A stretch of 13,931 nucleotides of DNA from the IMG/VR virus record IMGVR_UViG_2728369553_000003; one strand, given 5' to 3'. The notes under the pieces are model-generated. The model made no database searches, had not been told where the DNA came from, and saw only the letters and a program-made list of their open reading frames with translations. The translations under genes were made by a program, and so were the position numbers. The number at the start of each line of letters is the position of its first letter. Position 1 is the first letter of the stretch. Below, piece by piece: positions 5,288 through 12,695 of the stretch. The DNA comes from a virus. Its lineage: Duplodnaviria > Heunggongvirae > Uroviricota > Caudoviricetes.

Positions 5288-6040
5288 TTATCTCGTCACC
5301 TTTCTCAATTGCGTTTCAGCATATGCTTCTTCCTGCCAGCACTTTGTTACTAGTTTATCAATTACGTCTGCATATCCTTTGTACCACTGATAATCAGTCA
5401 GGTCTGGAACCAGCTTCTGGACATGACGTCGTGCCAGTGTAGTTGGTAAACGGCTAAACCGGTTTCCATTGCAACGCCCACAAATCTTATAAACAGGCGT
5501 GCCATGAAGCCGGGTCCTTTTTTCATCCAGGACAATACCTTTACCCTTACACCCTCTGCACGCTGTGCTGACTTCTCCCTTACCATGACAATGCTGACAT
5601 AGTTCCTTCACCCACTCTTCCTTGATAACAGATTCCCCGCTTCTGGAGTGTTTCACCACCTCGCGCAATACATTATGAAATCCAGTACCAGCACAATGCT
5701 CACAGCGAGCCTTACTTGCCGCAGACCTGGAATAATCAGCAAAGGCAAAATTCACAAGGTAAGGAATGATCTGTAGCCGGGTTTCTTCACTCAATTTATT
5801 CAATGTCGGGTTATCCAGTGCCATCGCGTAATTGAGCAGACCTTCAATCGCAAACTGAGGATCCTGAACACCAACTTTTGCCAGGAATAAGGCAAACCCA
5901 AGCGGTGCTTTCGACTGCACCATCCCCTGCGCAGCCATCACATCCGTAATCGTTAAACCACCAGAGCCTGTCGCCGGTGCGTCATCGCTCAGTTTTGGAG
6001 ATTTCGGGGAGTAATATTTCGGTAAGGCTTCAAGGTTCAT
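5288..6040 (-). CDS. Putative late antiterminator Q-like protein (250 aa, four CxxCxGxG zinc-finger repeats)
   Basis: Position immediately upstream of the pR'/tR'-like elements and the lysis cassette. Cys-rich repeats CEHCAGTG, CQHCHGKG, CRGCKGKG, CGRCNGN. ATG at 6038-6040 with a GGAGAA SD. Family assignment rests on context and recall. Confidence 0.55.
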   Translation of the reverse strand: MNLEALPKYYSPKSPKLSDDAPATGSGGLTITDVMAAQGMVQSKAPLGFALFLAKVGVQDPQFAIEGLLNYAMALDNPTLNKLSEETRLQIIPYLVNFAFADYSRSAASKARCEHCAGTGFHNVLREVVKHSRSGESVIKEEWVKELCQHCHGKGEVSTACRGCKGKGIVLDEKRTRLHGTPVYKICGRCNGNRFSRLPTTLARRHVQKLVPDLTDYQWYKGYADVIDKLVTKCWQEEAYAETQLRKVTR

Positions 6041-6053
6041 GCTCGTTCTCCAC

Positions 6054-6985
6054 TTACGCCAGTACGCCTATTGCCAGCGCACGATCGATAAAACGAAATA
6101 TCAGCTCCAGCTGGGAACCATACTTCTCTTCAAATGCCACGGTATCCGCATGCAGCTCGTCGTGATGCTTTCTGCACAAAGGCAACACAAAGAGGTCATG
6201 CGCTTTTGTACCCATTCCCCCCTGACCGTGGCCTATCAGGTGGTGGGGATCATCAGCAGGCTTTCCACAACATGCACACGGCTGTGTCTTAACCCAGCGT
6301 GTGTACTTTTCATTAACCCAGCGGCGACGTTTTGGGCGTAACATAAAAGACTCCGGCGACTCCGGATCCACTTTCAGCGCCAGCACCTTTTTCACCTTAT
6401 CCTGGATGATGCTGGTGGCAGGAACCGAAGGCACAAGGTCACTTTCCCGGGTGACAGACGGCACAACAGGCTTCGGTAATCTCAGTGCCTTACGGGCTGC
6501 ACTTTCCGGTAAGGCATCCGCCAGGTCATTACGAATCAGCCACCAGCACAGTTCCGGCATTGTCACAACGTGACTATCATCAAAACCGAGATCCCGACGC
6601 ACAACAGACAACACCCAGCGGGCACAGTTATCCGTTGCCATTGATTCCAGCCGTTCCGTGAACTGATCGCGCAGCTGGTTATCGCAGTGCCAGCACAGAC
6701 GGATTGCGCCCGGCGCGTGTCGCATTGTTGTCATGTTCTCGCTGTGCCAGTCGGAATGAGGCCACTGGCAGCCTTTTTCACGAAGTAACCAGCTTTCAAG
6801 ACATTCCACGCCACCAGCACGACGGATCACTGCCTCATTGCGGAACACGGCCCGAACGTCAGGATCATCCGCCAGCGGTTGTGATGCCGCCGGAACAGCA
6901 CCACTGGCGAAAGATGAATAACGTTCCGGCTCAGGCTCCAGCAGGACACGCCCCTGCATAAACAGGGGCATCAGCTCTGAACCTG
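6054..6985 (-). CDS. DUF968-like protein (N-terminus hidden in assembly gap)
   Basis: Open minus frame from the gap edge to the stop at 6054-6056. C-terminal motif CACCGKPADDPHHLIGHGQGGMGTKAHDLFVLPLCRKHHDELH recalled as characteristic of DUF968 prophage proteins. Probably a separate gene from the KilA-N ORF, though the tracker fuses them across the N-run. Confidence 0.5.
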
Positions 6986-7111
6986 NNNNNNNNNNNNNNN
7001 NNNNNNNNNNNNNNNNNNNNNNNNNNNNNNNNNNNNNNNNNNNNNNNNNNNNNNNNNNNNNNNNNNNNNNNNNNNNNNNNNNNNNNNNNNNNNNNNNNNN
7101 NNNNNNNNNNN
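6986..7111. other. Assembly gap (126 N) hiding the boundary between the KilA-N and DUF968 coding regions
   Basis: Run of N. Confidence 0.95.
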
Positions 7112-7874
7112 GGAATCGGGATTCGAAGAAATGCGGCTGCGTCTCACGCGGATTTGCGGGACTGGTGATATTCTTGCCGAACATGCAGCCTTTCGCTGTC
7201 AGCGACCAGAATTTTTTGATGTTGTTAATCGCTGTACGGCTGTATCGTTCGCGCTGTTCGACGATCCCCAGCTTCGCCATCTGGTGATATGCCTGATTAG
7301 CCGTAAGGCGGATACCATACTGCTTCAGCAGTGCACTCAGTGACAGCGTGGGGCGGCTTGAGCCATCAGGCGCGTCAGCAGGAGCATCAATGGCATAGCG
7401 CGGTGCCAGATTCGGTAAGCCAACAGCCTCCTGAAGTTTCTGACAGGCTCCAAGCACTGAAGAGTTAGACAGATTTAACTCCCGGCGCATAAAGTCCAGC
7501 AGAATCACACCAGCCTGCATCTTGTCAGCAGCCTGTCCGGATAATTTTTCCGGTGCGCTGGTTACCATGTCGAAAGTACGGATCACCTTCAGATGGAATG
7601 ACGGGCTGATCCACATTGCATAGGCATACACCAGTTCTTTGCAGACATACGTCCCCTGGTTATTTCCGCCACGAATAACGTTAACTGGCTCTATATTGAC
7701 CGAGTTGCAAATCTGCAACTCGCTTATTAAACGCTCAGTTTGCTCATTGCGGAGCCAGAATGCAGGCTTATGCTTATCCAGAGAACCGGCAGCCCTGTGC
7801 AGATCGTTCAGGCTGTAACGCCCATAAGCATCACGACGAACTTCAATACCATCAATGACCATCAGATTATTCAT
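7112..7874 (-). CDS. KilA-N domain antirepressor-like protein (C-terminus hidden in gap)
   Basis: ATG at 7872-7874 with a GAGGAG 9 nt upstream. N-terminus MNNLMVIDGIEVRRDAYGRYSLNDLHRAAG... is KilA-N-like, followed by an antirepressor-like C-region. The open frame runs into the N-run. Confidence 0.6.
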
Positions 7875-7893
7875 ACTTCGTTTCTCCTCTTAA

Positions 7894-8283
7894 TCAGGCG
7901 GCTGCACCCGCCGTTTTCTCGTACTTACTGATAGTGATCTCGACCTTCCCTTCCGGGATAACCGGTCCCCACTCCACCAGCATTCTTTTCACCTGACTGT
8001 CGTCTTCCCACACACCCGCGTGGGTCAGGGCGTCAAACAGCGCCTTGTTATAGTTGTCCAGATCGCGGATCCGGTTATCCGGAGGAAACAACACGATCTC
8101 CACTGAAGCAGGTGCCGACGTTGGTTTTGGCAGACGACGTAACTGCTCAACTATTGCTGCACACGCCGCGCTCTGGAATTTGCGCCCCGCCGCGCTTATC
8201 AGGCTCTTACCTGCAAACGCCCCTTTGTTGGGGTGTCGCCAGTACGTGTTCACGCTGGGCGGGAAAGGCAGAATCAGCTTCAT
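7894..8283 (-). CDS. rusA: RusA-family Holliday junction resolvase
   Basis: 129 aa with a RusA-like layout (PPS.N.Y.R...; ...RDLDNYNKALFDALT..GVW.DD.QV). ATG at 8281-8283 overlaps the upstream stop (ATGA). Confidence 0.8.
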   Translation of the reverse strand: MKLILPFPPSVNTYWRHPNKGAFAGKSLISAAGRKFQSAACAAIVEQLRRLPKPTSAPASVEIVLFPPDNRIRDLDNYNKALFDALTHAGVWEDDSQVKRMLVEWGPVIPEGKVEITISKYEKTAGAAA

Positions 8284-8606
8284 ACTTTCAGACCCCTCTC
8301 ATGTAACCAGTGGGCTGCACGCAGCCTGGCGTTTTCCTCACCGGCAAGCAGTGAGCGGATAATCCCGACCGCCTCGCTGTCGTCGTCCTTCACCGCGGTA
8401 TGAAGCGTTATCCCCCGGGCCACACCACGCTTTATCGTGATGACGCCTTTTTTCTCCAGTGCGCGAAGATGCTCCACCGCTGCATTCACTGAACGATATC
8501 CCAGCATGGTTGCCACCTCCTGATTGGTTGGCGGAAAGCCACGCTCTTTCTGGTAAGAAATCAGCATATCCAGCACCTGCTGCTGGCATTGAGTTAACGT
8601 CGTCAT
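8280..8606 (-). CDS. LexA N-terminal DNA-binding-domain homolog lacking the S24 peptidase domain
   Basis: Residues 4-68 align with the E. coli LexA winged-helix domain at about 50% identity as recalled (LT..QQ.V.D.I......G.PPT..E.A..LG.RS.NAA.EHL.AL..KGVI.I..G..RGI.L). No Ala-Gly cleavage site or Ser/Lys dyad follows; the 40-aa C-tail is unrelated. Translationally coupled on both sides by ATGA overlaps. Confidence 0.8.
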   Translation of the reverse strand: MTTLTQCQQQVLDMLISYQKERGFPPTNQEVATMLGYRSVNAAVEHLRALEKKGVITIKRGVARGITLHTAVKDDDSEAVGIIRSLLAGEENARLRAAHWLHERGLKV

Positions 8607-9256
8607 GCCGCCATCTCCCTGACCAGTTTTTCCGCCTGCTGGCGAACCTGCACCAGAAAGGCTTCACCACATGCCTCAAGTTCATCGCGCCCGATGTAGC
8701 TGATTGCCGGTCCCTTCCAGGTCTTGTCGAAAACAGCAATAGCACCAGCGAAGAAAGCGCCTGTCGGTACCTGCTTCTCGTCTTTCGGGATAAACCAGAC
8801 AGGCAGTTCAAAACCAATACGCCCGCGAATAAAAGCAATATGATCTGCATTTTCCGGCCACCACACTTCGCTGGTGGCAGCTTTGATCAGGAAAACATAG
8901 CGCCCGCCTTTATCACGCATGGCACTGGCATGCTTCATGATGTAACGCATGCCGGTGATGTATTGCCCCTCATGCTGACTGGCGCGGCTGTATGGGGGAT
9001 TACCAAAGGCAGCACCTTTAAGCTCCGCAAGACGTTCTGACCAGTCATGCGCCAGCGCGTTGTCTTCCGCCGTGTAATACGCGGCACATTTGGCGTTATC
9101 ACCGTCAGTGAACAGATCCAGAACAAACGGGCCAAACAGGGTGTTAATTCCCCAGAAAATGTTGTCCGGCGTGCGCCACTGATCGCCCACTTCCTTCAGT
9201 TCATGGGCTGGTTTGTTCCGCAGTTCCACCAGCGCCTGGCAATATTTATTACTCAT
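8603..9256 (-). CDS. Phage Dam-family DNA N6-adenine methyltransferase
   Basis: Catalytic NPPY motif (FGNPPYS) and an N-terminal WRTPDNIF...LDLFTD segment. The likely start is the ATG at 9254-9256 (GGGGG SD, overlaps the upstream TAA); the tracker start at 9289 is GTG. Confidence 0.8.
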   Translation of the reverse strand: MSNKYCQALVELRNKPAHELKEVGDQWRTPDNIFWGINTLFGPFVLDLFTDGDNAKCAAYYTAEDNALAHDWSERLAELKGAAFGNPPYSRASQHEGQYITGMRYIMKHASAMRDKGGRYVFLIKAATSEVWWPENADHIAFIRGRIGFELPVWFIPKDEKQVPTGAFFAGAIAVFDKTWKGPAISYIGRDELEACGEAFLVQVRQQAEKLVREMAA

Positions 9257-9744
9257 TAAGCCCCCACGTAATTCCCTGACAGATACCACTCTTCACCCGA
9301 TGCAGCGCGCTTGCTGCTTTTCCGTAAGCACCGCTCACGACGCGCCAGAAAATTGTTTCGCTCTTGCTGGGAGTGGCTTTCACGGAATGCCGCCATCCAC
9401 ACCGTTGCAGCACGACGGTATAAGCCCCTGGACTCCAGTTCTTCCGCCTGGCGGGTCAGGCACAAAATCTCCCGCGGGTCGTTAGTGCCGACATAGAAAT
9501 TGCGCACAGGTCTGGTTTCACGAACTGGTTGCGGTTCCGCCTCCTGCGCTCTCTCAGTCAGGCGCGGGAAATGTCTGCGTGTATCCCCTTCACAACGGTG
9601 AGCCACACGACCACTCTGACGTAACTTGCTTGCTGACTGCAGAACGCGCTGCCGTGAGTAACCTGCAAAAGCATCCGCAATGTCTCCGGAAGTACACCCC
9701 GGATGGGCTTCAATGTATTTCTGAACTTCATTCAAAAGACTCAT
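9256..9744 (-). CDS. Hypothetical 162-aa regulator-like protein (tentative resemblance to PerC-family activators)
   Basis: ATG at 9742-9744 with a GGGGGTG SD, 2 nt after the O-like stop. The C-terminal segment AEELESRGLYRRAATVWMAAF is recalled as PerC-like; this is unverified. It sits where lambdoid phages normally carry a helicase loader. Confidence 0.45.
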   Translation of the reverse strand: MSLLNEVQKYIEAHPGCTSGDIADAFAGYSRQRVLQSASKLRQSGRVAHRCEGDTRRHFPRLTERAQEAEPQPVRETRPVRNFYVGTNDPREILCLTRQAEELESRGLYRRAATVWMAAFRESHSQQERNNFLARRERCLRKSSKRAASGEEWYLSGNYVGA

Positions 9745-9746
9745 GA

Positions 9747-10837
9747 TCACCCCCTGAATCCTGCCGGGATCTGGCTGTAGTCCACGTTGTCGTAACTGGC
9801 TTTGAAGTACGGGTCTTCGCGTTTTTCGGTGTACGTGCTGACGGACGGCGATAAGCGCAGGGAAAGCTCATCCCATTTTTCCCGCAGCTTCGACGGGCTG
9901 AGCACGTTACGGCACCAGAACGGATCGCGGCTGACGCGGCTGTACATCTCGCAGATTTGTTTGTGAGTACGACCATCCTGCACACACATCAGGCGAATTT
10001 CGTTTGCCCAGGCTGTCCAGTTCGGTTCTTTGGGACGAACCACCTCGCCGTCACATTCGGCGGCTTGCTCGTACAGGGCGATGATTTTTTTCCAGAGCCA
10101 CTGTGCGCAGGTCAAATCATCCTGCGTTCCCCACTGGCGCTTTTTAGGGCTGAATACAACCGCATCAGGATGGCGAGTTAAAAAATCCTGTTCATCCGTC
10201 TGCGTGTCCGGTTGCGAAGCGTCCGGACGAGAAGGTTTTTTATCTGACGGATCATGTTTTGATTTTACTGACGGATCCCCGCCAGATTCTGACGGGTGAA
10301 AACCCGCTTTTTTGCCAGATTTCNNNNNNNNNNCTCCTGTTCAGCCGTCTGCGTGTCCGGTTGCGAAGCGTCCGGACGAGAAGTTTTTTTATCTGACGGA
10401 TCATGTTTTGATTTTACTGACGGATCCCCGCCAGATTCTGACGGGTGAAAACCCGCTTTTTTGCCAGATTTCGACGCATCAAATTTTGACGGGTCAGATT
10501 TTGATGCGTCAGATTTTGACGGGTCAGAATCTGACAGTTGAGAAAATGCCGCTGCCTGAAGCTTCGCAACGTTAAGCTGATAAACATTCGACGCATTGCG
10601 GTTACCCTGGCGACGCGCCTTACGCGTTAACCAGCCTTCTGCTTCCAGCCGTGCGATAGCCGTCCTGACGGTACTCATCCCCGCGCCAATCTGACGGGCA
10701 ATAGTTTCAATTGATGGCCAGCACACACCTTCGTCATTACTGAAATCAGCCAGGCGGGCCATAATTGCCACGCTGGATAATTTCATGCCTGACGCAGCGC
10801 AACCATCCCATACATAGCCGGTTAATTTAGTGCTCAT
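9747..10837 (-). CDS. O-like replication initiator, apparently split by a 10-N gap and an unmerged 138-bp contig overlap
   Basis: N-terminal winged-helix domain (10561-10837), then a repeat-encoded SDPSK/SDASK linker, then a C-terminal domain (9747-10185). The tracker reports two ORFs (10265..10837 and 9747..10115, the latter with a TTG start). Collapsing the duplicated 138-bp copies restores one in-frame ORF of about 313 aa. Confidence 0.65.
10186..10472. repeat. 138-bp direct repeat (10186-10323 and 10335-10472) flanking a 10-N gap; probable unmerged contig overlap
   Basis: The copies are identical except for two positions (10195 T vs 10344 G; 10235 G vs 10384 T). The 149-nt offset breaks the frame as presented, but the frame is restored if one copy is removed. 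Confidence 0.7.
10391..10540. repeat. Iteron-like repeats inside the O-like gene (candidate origin of replication)
   Basis: Five tandem 15-bp units at 10464-10538 (consensus about TCAGATTTTGACGGG), plus spaced CTGACGG motifs at about 10393, 10417 and 10437. Lambda ori likewise lies in iterons within O. Confidence 0.5.
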
Positions 10838-10846
10838 GACCGACCT

Positions 10847-11185
10847 CTATTTCCCTGAATTTACGACGAAACTGTTCGAGCGGGCTGAAGCACTCATGCT
10901 CATAGCCTTCGCGGAGGTAGATAACTCGTTGTGTTTCCGGCTCCCAACGAATGACTCTGACGGGCACTCCGTAGTGATCTTTGAACCAGCGGTTAACTTG
11001 TCGCAAAGGACTGTCTCCTTCTGCCGGTTGAAATCACCCACAGCCCACTCAGCAAAGCTGTGGGTTACAATTTCCCTGTCACCTGGTACATTAACTGCAT
11101 AGCAATACTCCACCTTCGCTTTTCCACCCGGTACAGGAAGCGCAATCAGTTGCGAGCGACGGAAGTGTGTTGTTAAACTGTTCAT
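10847..11185 (-). CDS. Hypothetical 112-aa protein between the CII-like and O-like genes
   Basis: ATG at 11183-11185 overlaps the CII-like stop (ATGA). Its stop lies 9 nt before the O-like ATG, with an AGG in between. The C-terminal 25 residues are low-complexity. Confidence 0.45.
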
Positions 11186-11778
11186 GCGTTAGTTTCTCCA
11201 CAGTCACGACACGCCACGGCGCCCGGAGCTGCACACTCGCGGGCGTCATTACTTTCTGAAATGCAAAAGATTTTGTAGACCAGTGCTGCATGCTCCTGCA
11301 GCTTCGAAATTGAGAGATACAGCTCGTCGTTAATTGCTGTCTTCTCATGCGGTTCCACCACACCGTCTTCGATTGCCGAACGAATCTGTCTGGAATAACT
11401 GCCAATCTGTTCAATGACTTCCAGCAGGCGCTGGTTAATATCGGCGTTGTCCACATCCTCGACGTCAGGAAGAGATACAAAGACGCCATTTGCAGACTGC
11501 GCCACAGCGTCAGCAATGAAGTGAGTTCCACCAGCACGTTGCAAAATCATTGCCCATCCCAGCGGGAAAATCTGATCGCCATCGGCACGAAGGCGGTTAA
11601 ATAATGCGTTTTCTGTTACATCCAGCCAGTCAGCTGCTTCAGCGTAACCACCCGGCAACGCTGCGATAGTTTTTCTGACAGCTTTCACGTACCACTCAGG
11701 CTGTTTTTCTACTTTCCAGTGATGCTTACCCACGGTTAGCCTCATCGTTCTGTGGTTTCTGTTAATCGATTTATCCAT
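11182..11778 (-). CDS. CII-like early regulator (phage regulatory CII / YdaT-type); start uncertain
   Basis: About 200 aa directly downstream of cro, in the cII position. The tracker start at 11847 is GTG and lies inside cro. Candidate ATG starts are at 11788-11790 and 11776-11778; the latter overlaps the cro stop (ATGGATAA). Confidence 0.5.
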
Positions 11779-11971
11779 TAGATTTTTCATAAAGCTCAGG
11801 TTTAAATGGCAACCGTCCGCAAGTTCTATATGCAGCTTCTGCTGCACGTCCTTTTGGAATTAACTGGCCCGGACGGTTTCGCCACTGATAAACGGCTTCA
11901 GTTGTTATGCCGAAAAAAGCAGCAACTTTCTCAATACTGCCGAAGTAGCTTTCGATATCGTCAGTTGTCAT
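11771..11971 (-). CDS. cro: Cro-like HTH repressor
   Basis: 66-aa HTH protein divergent from the cI-like gene. ATG at 11969-11971 with a GGAGG 4 nt upstream. Confidence 0.8.
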   Translation of the reverse strand: MTTDDIESYFGSIEKVAAFFGITTEAVYQWRNRPGQLIPKGRAAEAAYRTCGRLPFKPELYEKSNG

Positions 11972-12068
11972 ACGCCCTCCAAACTAAGTTTTATTAGATG
12001 CTAATTACAAATCTATCTTTGGTCAATAAAAACTAAGATTACTTAGCAATTCAAGAAATGGTGCTCCT
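11972..12068. promoter_or_regulatory. OR-like divergent control region with a PR-like promoter and CTAAG-based operator candidates
   Basis: Minus-strand TTGACC-17nt-TAGCAT (plus 11998-12026) upstream of the cro SD. Inverted repeat CTAAG-ATTA-CTTAG at 12033-12046 and a near-copy CTAAG-TTTT-ATTAG at 11984-11997. AACTAAG occurs at 11982 and 12031. Confidence 0.5.
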
Positions 12069-12695
12069 ATGGAAACGGTTGGTCAGCGTATAAAAGCTCT
12101 GAGAAGAGTTACCGGAACGTCCCAGAAAGAATTGGGTAAATTTTGTGGAGTAAGCGACGTTGCTGTGGGGTACTGGGAGAAAGACATCAATACCCCTGGT
12201 GGGGAGGCACTTTCGAAATTAGCGAAGTTCTTCAATACGTCAATAGATTACATTCTTTATGGTGCTGAGTTTGAAGGCAAACTCGTCACAAACATGCGCA
12301 GAGTTCCTGTAATATCGTGGGTTCAGGCTGGGCAGTTTACTGAGTGCAGGGCAGCAGAAGTGTTTAGTGAAGTGGACAAGTGGGTAGATACATCATTAAA
12401 GATTGGTGATAACTCATTTGCATTAGAGGTTAAAGGTGACTCCATGACTAACCCTAATGGCCTCCCAACAATACCAGAAGGCGCAACAGTGATTGTAGAT
12501 CCAGATGCAGAACCTCGTCATGGAAAAATAGTCATCGCTCGACTTGATGGAACAAACGAAGCTACAGTAAAAAAATTAGTCATCGATGGCCCTCAAAAGT
12601 TTTTAGTGCCATTAAATCCTCGGTATCCCAACATCCCTATCAATGGTAATTGCCTTATCATTGGTGTAGTCAAAGGAGTTCAATACGAACTCTAA
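12069..12695 (+). CDS. cI: cI-like prophage repressor (XRE HTH plus S24 LexA-type autopeptidase domain)
   Basis: N-terminal HTH (QKELGKFCGVSDVAVGYWE), Ala-Gly cleavage site (VQAGQF), catalytic Ser in GDSM and Lys in TVKKL. Divergent from cro. Confidence 0.9.
   Translation: METVGQRIKALRRVTGTSQKELGKFCGVSDVAVGYWEKDINTPGGEALSKLAKFFNTSIDYILYGAEFEGKLVTNMRRVPVISWVQAGQFTECRAAEVFSEVDKWVDTSLKIGDNSFALEVKGDSMTNPNGLPTIPEGATVIVDPDAEPRHGKIVIARLDGTNEATVKKLVIDGPQKFLVPLNPRYPNIPINGNCLIIGVVKGVQYEL

Follow-up and report, generated by a model that had tools for sequence, protein, structure and literature searches.

Bacteriophage lambda carries its replication origin in the middle of its own initiator gene, O, where O-binding iterons are followed by an AT-rich tract. 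The number of iterons varies between phages, as among the Stx phages, and this alters the length of the O protein (PMC7466680). The genome paper of SfIV treats orf41-45 as a replication module and names no origin (PMC3851460). Iteron-type plasmid replicons (see the review PMC4980987) combine a winged-helix initiator, short tandem repeats and an adjoining AT-rich tract. Here we analyze an initiator gene in a 13,931-nt stretch of a virus of the Caudoviricetes (IMG/VR record IMGVR_UViG_2728369553_000003). We refer to this whole stretch as the window, and all coordinates are given in it. Judged against complete phage genomes, positions 9747-10837 on the minus strand are one replication initiator gene of an SfII/SfIV/CPS-53-type lambdoid prophage, with a true product of 313 amino acids. 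SfIV gp41 and the SfII "O protein family protein" are the same gene, with at least 99% nucleotide identity and a product of 313 amino acids; the gene is intact in SfIV, whereas the window copy is interrupted by what we read as a scaffold artefact. The explanation that best accommodates the locus as a whole combines an assembly artefact, an O-like initiator and a replication origin in the initiator's linker, and we hold this combination to be highly probable.

The interrupted initiator gene

As assembled, the gene is split into two open reading frames (ORFs). The upstream ORF (10265..10837) crosses a run of 10 N at 10324-10333 into the wrong frame and meets a stop at 10265, and the downstream ORF (9747..10115) begins at an apparent TTG start. 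The original prediction attributed this two-gene appearance to a scaffolding error, reporting two 138-bp copies with two differences on either side of the gap and an initiator of about 313 amino acids once one copy and the gap were removed. The gap is confirmed, and the length of the copies and the number of differences needed revision. Copies of 138 nt at 10186-10323 and 10335-10472 differ at two positions (10195 T versus 10344 G, and 10235 G versus 10384 T), and alignment with the SfIV genome extends the overlap to 139 nt (10185-10323 and 10334-10472) with a third difference (10185 A versus 10334 C). Deletion of 149 nt, consisting of one copy and the N run, does fuse the two ORFs into a single ORF of 313 codons, whichever copy is retained. 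The TTG at 10115 is an internal codon of the joined ORF, so the apparent second start disappears as anticipated.

The two contig ends map to overlapping segments of single-copy sequence in SfIV, with the left end (9740-10323) aligning to SfIV 30808-31391 and the right end (10334-10900) to SfIV 30380-30946. The same overlap of the contig ends is seen in 14 further complete phage genomes at 97-99.5% identity, and the overlap sequence is single-copy in the complete genomes of SfIV, SfII and others. SfIV gp41, annotated as "primosomal protein", is one coding sequence (CDS) of 942 nt encoding 313 amino acids and is nearly identical to the joined ORF. With the SfIV-type copy retained, the joined protein differs from gp41 at one residue. 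No direct repeat of at least 100 nt is present among 76 related genes from species-representative genomes, and the longest direct repeats in that set (67 and 49 nt) arise where the 15-bp array described below has expanded in frame. A search of complete E. coli genomes found a single CDS under the match in all 25 rows sampled, and the gene is intact in 73 of 75 complete relatives. Since 149 cannot be divided by 3, a genuine duplication would knock out a gene that is otherwise kept intact nearly everywhere. The overlapping map positions, the single SfIV CDS and a full-length match to a phage initiator profile (see below) all bear out the proposed scaffolding error, and the two-gene appearance is almost certainly an artefact of this kind and "not a real duplication". 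An annotation should treat both ORFs as a single initiator of 313 amino acids and drop the 149-nt duplication.

The window is a scaffolded draft, since it contains N runs at 751-888, 2761-2808 and 6986-7111 in addition to that at 10324-10333. Duplicated flanks were found at none of the other three gaps of the window, making 10324-10333 the sole case. Overlapping flanks around a 10-N run usually mean that a scaffolding program has left two overlapping contigs unmerged, and the SfIV alignment indicates that this run is a placeholder with no sequence missing there. The differences between the overlap copies are not read errors or random errors, since each copy is a natural haplotype that matches a sequenced relative without mismatch (Table 1). 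A third combination of the same three single-nucleotide polymorphisms (SNPs) occurs in E. coli 1436 (L087). These haplotypes suggest that the sample probably held two copies or variants of the initiator gene. Of 5426 complete E. coli genomes, 2059 (38%) carry the initiator region, at 2326 places in all and with up to 4 copies in one genome. Contigs end within or beside the initiator gene in several other drafts (L009, L010, L050, L056, L083 and L084), and two species have two or three separate copies of it. The gene would seem to be a frequent assembly break point, since related prophages share it.

In the series of events that we propose, two contigs with a 139-nt end overlap would have been left unmerged because of the three linked SNPs, which would represent two natural haplotypes and hence two gene copies or variants in the sample. 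The scaffolder would have joined both contigs with a minimal 10-N spacer. The assembly would thereby have acquired a spurious 149-nt tandem duplication and a frameshift, along with a stop at 10265 and a TTG start at 10115 that are both false.

Two other accounts of the interruption deserve consideration. The 149-nt tandem duplication could be real and the gene a frameshifted pseudogene in a decaying prophage, with the 10 N masking a short unresolved stretch. Prophage initiator genes do decay, as illustrated by the CPS-53 copy of K-12 EMG2 (L088), which lies beside yfdN and is 5'-truncated, having lost its first ~78 codons and kept the repeats and the C-terminal domain; and the two copies in the window differ at three positions, as diverged duplicates might. 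However, each copy is a different allele circulating in other genomes, which is unexpected for divergence in situ, and both copies run right up to the N run, beyond which neither has any further sequence. No such repeat occurs in the 76 related loci or in 15 phage genomes, and the N run with its overlapping flanks has the signature of a scaffolder. A real duplication is accordingly an exceedingly unlikely explanation. A chimeric join is harder to dismiss, though we still find it doubtful. The left contig (from 10323 down to 9747 and beyond) and the right contig (from 10334 on) would then come from two related prophages of one genome, each of which would own its intact or partial gene copy, and the joined 313-amino-acid gene would exist at no single locus. 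The three linked SNPs between two haplotypes that are both natural alleles, the occurrence of up to four region copies in E. coli genomes and the frequency with which contigs end in or near the gene in other drafts are all in keeping with such a join. Against it, the genes on either side of the gap follow the order of a single SfIV module from gp37 to gp45, each flank has 99% identity or more to the same phages, and the same pattern would arise, with no wrong join, from a mixed population or from a collapsed repeat.

The initiator protein and its linker DNA

Residues 1-313 of the joined protein align with the entire 298-position profile of PHROG 391, "replication initiation O-like" (E 8.6e-136, 453 bits), and the protein also matches phrog_11896 over residues 1-203. 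Amino acids 23-70 correspond to the Pfam winged-helix DNA-binding domain HTH_36 (E 4.3e-11). A Pfam scan at E <= 0.01 lists HTH_36, GntR, HTH_29, PaaX, DnaD_N, RP-C and MarR, and at this threshold there is no match to Phage_rep_O. There is likewise no significant match to a Rep_3-type Pfam family, with only a weak RP-C match (E 0.0046) that falls below its cut-off. An NCBIfam search of the initiator gave only a sub-threshold PaaX match, and a PDB sequence search gave only weak matches to MarR and PaaX winged-helix proteins and no solved relative. The C-terminal region is of the lambda O type: residues 168-313 match the C-terminus of O in the lambda genome with 39.1% identity over 110 amino acids (tblastn, E 5e-19), and the whole initiator aligns with lambda O at 31% identity over 216 amino acids (BLASTP, E 3e-26). 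An HHpred analysis assigns HTH_36 similarity to lambda O (PMC5509034), and a remote homology between the two N-termini is possible. These comparisons show an initiator composed of an HTH_36 winged-helix N-terminus, a (SDxSK)n linker followed by FHPSESGGDPSV, and a C-terminus homologous to that of lambda O.

The linker is encoded by tandem repeats. Tandem Repeats Finder reports a period of 15 with 4.3 copies at 10465-10528, and a repeat search finds register-shifted copies over 10465-10539, equivalent to five units. The five units originally placed at 10464-10538 are thus present with slightly corrected coordinates, as is the SDPSK/SDASK pentapeptide linker, the units reading SDPSK, SDASK, SDPSK and FDASK. 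Read on the plus strand, each unit is a 13-bp near-palindrome with the sequence GTCAGA-W-TCTGAC, and 2 bp separate adjacent units. The core TCARAATCTGRC, allowing at most one mismatch, is confined to the linker within the 13.9-kb window. Natural alleles differ by whole 15-bp units, and that of E. coli 1436 has one additional unit and encodes 318 amino acids. The spaced CTGACGG motifs noted in the original prediction were also recovered, with 13 occurrences in the window against 1.45 expected, a count reached in none of 200 shuffled sequences. Ten of the 13 fall within 9838-10963, all on the plus strand and in three reading frames, and correspond to seven unique sites once the artefactual copy is discounted. 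CTGACGG also occurs beyond the linker at 9838, 10665, 10691 and 10957 (plus strand, in differing frames), within the coding regions of the N- and C-terminal domains and in the upstream gene; the flanks of these four motifs match the iteron consensus weakly.

Next to the array lies a DNA block that is conserved across the family (Table 1). It holds two direct repeats of GATCCGTCAG, 24 nt apart, with GATC at 10423-10426 (conserved in 71 of 74 loci) and at 10399-10402 (62 of 74). A gene for an N6-adenine methyltransferase (8603-9289) is located two genes downstream of the initiator, and a methylation link to origin control through the GATC sites would be speculation. The AT-rich tract at this position is a family-wide feature, with a GC content of 0.32 +/- 0.05 over 73 loci (+15 to +44 nt relative to the DPSV codon), and GC-rich sequence comes after it. 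A search for DnaA boxes in and around the initiator gene found none. A terminator-like hairpin, CGGGTGAAAACCCG followed by CTTTTTTGCC, is found at 10442-10455 on the plus strand, antisense to the initiator, with an artefactual copy at 10293-10306. Its 5-bp stem is weak, and it sits between the array and the conserved block in a variable part of the linker.

We compared related loci to distinguish constraint on the DNA from constraint on the peptide. A scan of species-representative genomes yielded 80 loci from Enterobacterales, ranging from Escherichia to Proteus, Providencia, Yersinia and Erwinia, and synonymous-site statistics were calculated for 74 species-level loci. The usable relatives all share the N-terminal domain, SDxSK-type units (mostly 4-5, range 1-10) and the block F[HD]P[SP]ESGGDPSV[NK]S. 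Beyond this point their C-terminal domains fall into at least three unrelated types, including lambda-O-like, DnaD-like ("ITDQAKQVL.HLNQ.TGSRYQ") and "DPA..VL.HFN" sequences, and the point of exchange lies directly after the conserved block and the AT-rich tract. The N-terminus and the linker appear to act as one module, because they are kept together while the C-terminal domain is swapped.

Silent sites in the N-terminal domain are near saturation, with a mean codon entropy of 1.49 bits and a top-codon share of 52% over 65 conserved degenerate codon columns. For 11 such columns in the linker block the entropy is 0.41 bits and the top codon accounts for 89% (Mann-Whitney p = 2.4e-6 versus the N-terminal domain). 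Nearly fixed linker codons include TCA for serine (36/36, 58/58 and 66/66), GAA for glutamate (60/60) and GTA for valine (71/74). The repeat units have similarly restricted codon usage. Among 326 pooled units, and with the same genes as background, Ser1 is TCT in 87% (background 10%), Ser4 is TCA in 86% (17%), Lys is AAA in 99.6% (65%) and Asp is GAC in 80% (45%). Information is spread evenly over codon positions 1, 2 and 3 of the 45-nt block, at 1.52, 1.59 and 1.49 bits (74 loci). Neighbouring positions vary freely, among them the third position in the first Gly codon and the stretch immediately upstream of the block, and this speaks against the linker having been transferred recently as a whole. 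Amino-acid changes, such as those from K to E or N and from S to L, largely preserve the nucleotide motif, and the core CAGAATCTG is retained even in the most distant members sampled (L075-L081, 53-60% identity). Slippage can make the units of an array alike in one genome, but it cannot keep them alike between genomes with near-saturated silent sites. We take these patterns of substitution to mean that a cis-acting DNA element lies in the linker. Lambda-type O genes from viral_contigs, taken as a positive control, gave 80 loci that are all 99-100% identical to lambda O and, lacking synonymous diversity, uninformative.

A candidate origin within the linker

The linker repeats are likely to represent a phage replication origin situated inside the initiator gene. 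The four lambda iterons, located by the same tool, occupy codons 117-145 of O, and in the BLASTP alignment these residues lie opposite residues ~108-140 of the window protein, which comprise the repeat units and the block. The AT-rich tract of the window aligns with residues encoded directly 3' of the lambda iterons, at about amino acids 146-159. We take this lambda stretch to be the AT-rich tract because the published order is iterons followed by AT tract (PMC7466680). The succession of DNA-binding domain, dyad-symmetric repeats, AT-rich tract and lambda-O-type C-terminus is therefore collinear with ori-lambda. The suggestion that the locus follows the ori-within-O logic of lambda is thus supported by the C-terminal homology, the placing of the repeats at the iteron position and the synonymous constraint, with the proviso that the N-terminus is not of the Pfam lambda O type.

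The resemblance to lambda extends beyond the order of these elements. Both initiators are two-domain proteins with homologous C-terminal domains and a repeat-encoding linker, and both sets of dyad-symmetric repeats have an AT-rich tract next to them. In both cases the gene follows cro-like and cII-like genes downstream of a pR or pR-like promoter, and changes in iteron copy number alter the length of the protein, as is also described for the Stx phages (PMC7466680). There are also differences. The window N-terminus is HTH_36, without a match to Phage_rep_O or a significant profile match to the lambda N-terminus, and the window iterons are 13 bp long at a 15-bp period, whereas those of lambda are ~19-20-bp units at a spacing of 20-24 bp. 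An additional invariant block, 45-60 bp long and containing two GATC sites, is present in the window, whose AT-rich tract is shorter and probably less extreme than that of lambda. In lambda the C-terminal domain of O binds P, and the window initiator has no P gene after it. Iteron-type plasmid replicons share with the window the three elements named at the outset. Nor is a dedicated helicase loader encoded in either, so that the initiator would have to recruit host DnaB/DnaC. In contrast to the plasmid replicons, the window iterons are palindromic and lie within the initiator's own coding sequence, and the window has neither a DnaA box nor a significant Rep_3-type match.

A mechanism of the lambda kind can be outlined for this locus. 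Dimers of the N-terminal domain would bind the five or six 13-bp dyad sites, at their 15-bp period, together with the GATCCGTCAG block, and the bound initiator would form an O-some-like complex. The AT-rich tract at 10380-10419 would melt, aided by transcription from a pR-like promoter located by a consensus scan, the likely source of transcription through the candidate origin. The lambda-O-type C-terminal domain would recruit the DnaB helicase machinery of the host. All three steps, from binding through melting to helicase recruitment, are ones that we infer, and recruitment appears to be the weakest of them, as no P-like partner is encoded.

Several points count against the account given here. 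A literature search found no published description of this origin, of its activity or of initiator binding to it. The 15-bp period puts adjacent sites on different faces of the helix, unlike the wider lambda spacing, and the AT-rich tract is modest, at 30% GC over ~40 bp. Comparison of the N-terminus with the O N-termini of lambda and Hafnia was not significant (hhalign probability 1%, E 0.056). The stretch from the initiator to the Q-like gene (5288-10837 in the window) encodes no P, DnaC or helicase, and the SfIV annotation shows none either. The DNA and peptide repeats are confounded, since each DNA unit encodes one peptide unit, and units 4 and 2 differ mostly at synonymous sites, which gives unit 4 the look of constraint at the protein level. 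On the assembly side, the two-haplotype cause of the contig break is deduced from the haplotypes themselves.

The repeats might be nothing other than a slippage-prone, low-complexity (SDxSK)n peptide linker, with no function as DNA and the origin elsewhere. The units are in frame and would make a plausible flexible linker of Ser, Asp and Lys, their copy number varies as it does in simple coding repeats, and the mainly synonymous differences between units 4 and 2 fit this idea. We nonetheless judge it very unlikely, as codon choice in the linker is fixed over 74 species while other synonymous sites are near saturation, the three codon positions are equally conserved, non-synonymous changes keep the nucleotide motif, the units are dyad-symmetric 13-mers, and slippage acts within genomes rather than between them. 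If the constraint on the DNA is real, it could still serve a different cis function, for example as an autoregulatory operator, a site for a phage or host protein (SeqA or Dam at GATC), an RNA element or an overlapping ORF. The conserved GATC sites and the nearby phage adenine methyltransferase gene, a +1 frame that is open through the repeats, and the weak antisense hairpin with its T-run at 10442-10455 can each be cited for such a function. An overlapping ORF should leave one codon position freer, and none is; moreover, the +1 frame ends in the conserved CCGTCAGTAA. The hairpin sits in the variable part of the linker. The position, the order from repeats to AT-rich tract and the linkage to a DNA-binding domain all match ori-lambda, and another cis function could coexist with an origin, so that as a replacement for one it is distinctly unlikely. 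We also considered that the locus might be an origin type not described before, built of 13-bp palindromic iterons at a 15-bp period and a ~60-bp block with two GATCCGTCAG repeats, with firing that is sensitive to methylation or SeqA at GATC (possibly through the phage's own N6-adenine methyltransferase) and direct, loader-free recruitment of DnaB/DnaC. An origin type of this description seems improbable. Phage replication modules have reportedly been classified by Weigel and Seitz (2006, as cited in PMC7466680), and the term "initiator-solo" had no occurrence in the literature searched.

An origin inside the initiator gene remains the reading that we favour. The locus is best regarded as an ordinary assembly artefact together with what would be an expected, so far uncharacterised origin of a well-known kind, the lambdoid initiator-embedded type. 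With such an origin, the "ori inside O" arrangement of lambda would come to include a second kind of DNA-binding domain, and nothing would be overturned. The synonymous-site signature delimits a fragment of ~160 bp (10380-10540), along with the 13-bp palindrome, as the candidate origin, and it would make the origins of prophages in this family easy to recognise from sequence. The region is widespread, occurring in more than a third of complete E. coli genomes, in CPS-53 of K-12 and in serotype-converting Shigella phages.

Features and gene neighbourhood of the window

Features of the window are collected in Table 1, in which gene identities were assigned by PHROGs.

Table 1. Coordinates of the initiator gene, its linker elements, the assembly features and the neighbouring genes.
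Feature	Position	Strand	Remarks
3' part of O-like initiator gene	9747..10184	-	codons about 169-313 and stop; lambda-O-type C-terminal domain
5' part of O-like initiator gene	10473..10837	-	ATG at 10837; HTH_36 winged-helix domain; start of repeat linker
Overlap copy L, end of left contig	10185..10323	-	haplotype A10185, T10195, G10235; 0 mismatches to Shigella flexneri SFBU0723 (L007), 3 to SfIV
Scaffold spacer	10324-10333	none	10 N; flanks overlap by 139 nt on SfIV genome
Overlap copy R, end of right contig	10334..10472	-	haplotype C10334, G10344, T10384; 0 mismatches to SfIV, 3 to L007
AT-rich tract, candidate DNA-unwinding element	10380..10419		GC 0.30, lowest in 9600-11000; downstream of iterons in direction of transcription
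Family-conserved DNA block	10391..10450		coding strand TTTCACCCGTCAGAATCTGGCGGGGATCCGTCAGTAAAATCAAAACATGATCCGTCAGAT, encodes FHPSESGGDPSVKSKHDPSD; artefactual copy 10242-10301
Sixth iteron-like site, apart from array, inside conserved block	10430..10442		GCCAGATTCTGAC; exact core TCAGAATCTGGC on minus strand; artefactual duplicate 10281-10293
Array of five 15-bp units, candidate iterons	10463..10537		encodes (SDxSK)n, amino acids 101-125
Unit	10523-10535	+	GTCAGAATCTGAC, perfect 6-1-6 palindrome
Unit	10508-10520	+	GTCAGATTTTGAC
Unit	10493-10505	+	GTCAGATTTTGAT
Unit	10478-10490	+	ATCAAATTTTGAC
Unit	10463-10475	+	GCCAGATTTCGAC
pR-like promoter	11998..12026	-	TTGACC-17-TAGCAT; upstream of cro-like, cII-like and O-like genes; consensus scan alone
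cI-like repressor	12069-12695	+	PHROG
cro-like	11771-11971	-	PHROG
cII-like	11182-11847	-	PHROG
phrog_1170	10847-11185	-	PHROG; function not assigned
O-like initiator	9747-10837	-	PHROG
PerC/YfdN-type activator	9256-9750	-	PHROG
DNA methyltransferase (N6-adenine)	8603-9289	-	PHROG
Repressor	8280-8606	-	PHROG
RusA	7894-8283	-	PHROG
Regulator and HNH endonuclease	6054-7874	-	PHROG
Q-like antiterminator	5288-6040	-	PHROG

The neighbourhood of the initiator is shared with SfIV, SfII and the CPS-53 (KplE1) remnant, with a ymfM-like gene upstream and yfdN/PerC-like and methyltransferase genes downstream. In Hafnia and Klebsiella phage relatives with the same C-terminal type, a replication gene lies directly downstream of the initiator. 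Klebsiella phage ST101-KPC2phi6.3 (L002, MK416017) has an intact, full-length O-like ORF with six SDxSK-type units at ~1970-2938, a region for which the MK416017 annotation lists only an antisense hypothetical protein and a 108-amino-acid fragment of "replication protein O". A further assembly effect is seen elsewhere in the window. The 606-amino-acid "ORF" at 6054-7874 (minus strand) is an artificial fusion of two genes read through the 126 N at 6986-7111. Its parts are a transcriptional regulator (phrog_129, amino acids 1-256) and an HNH endonuclease (phrog_96, amino acids 297-606), and their equivalents in SfIV are the separate genes gp44 and gp45.

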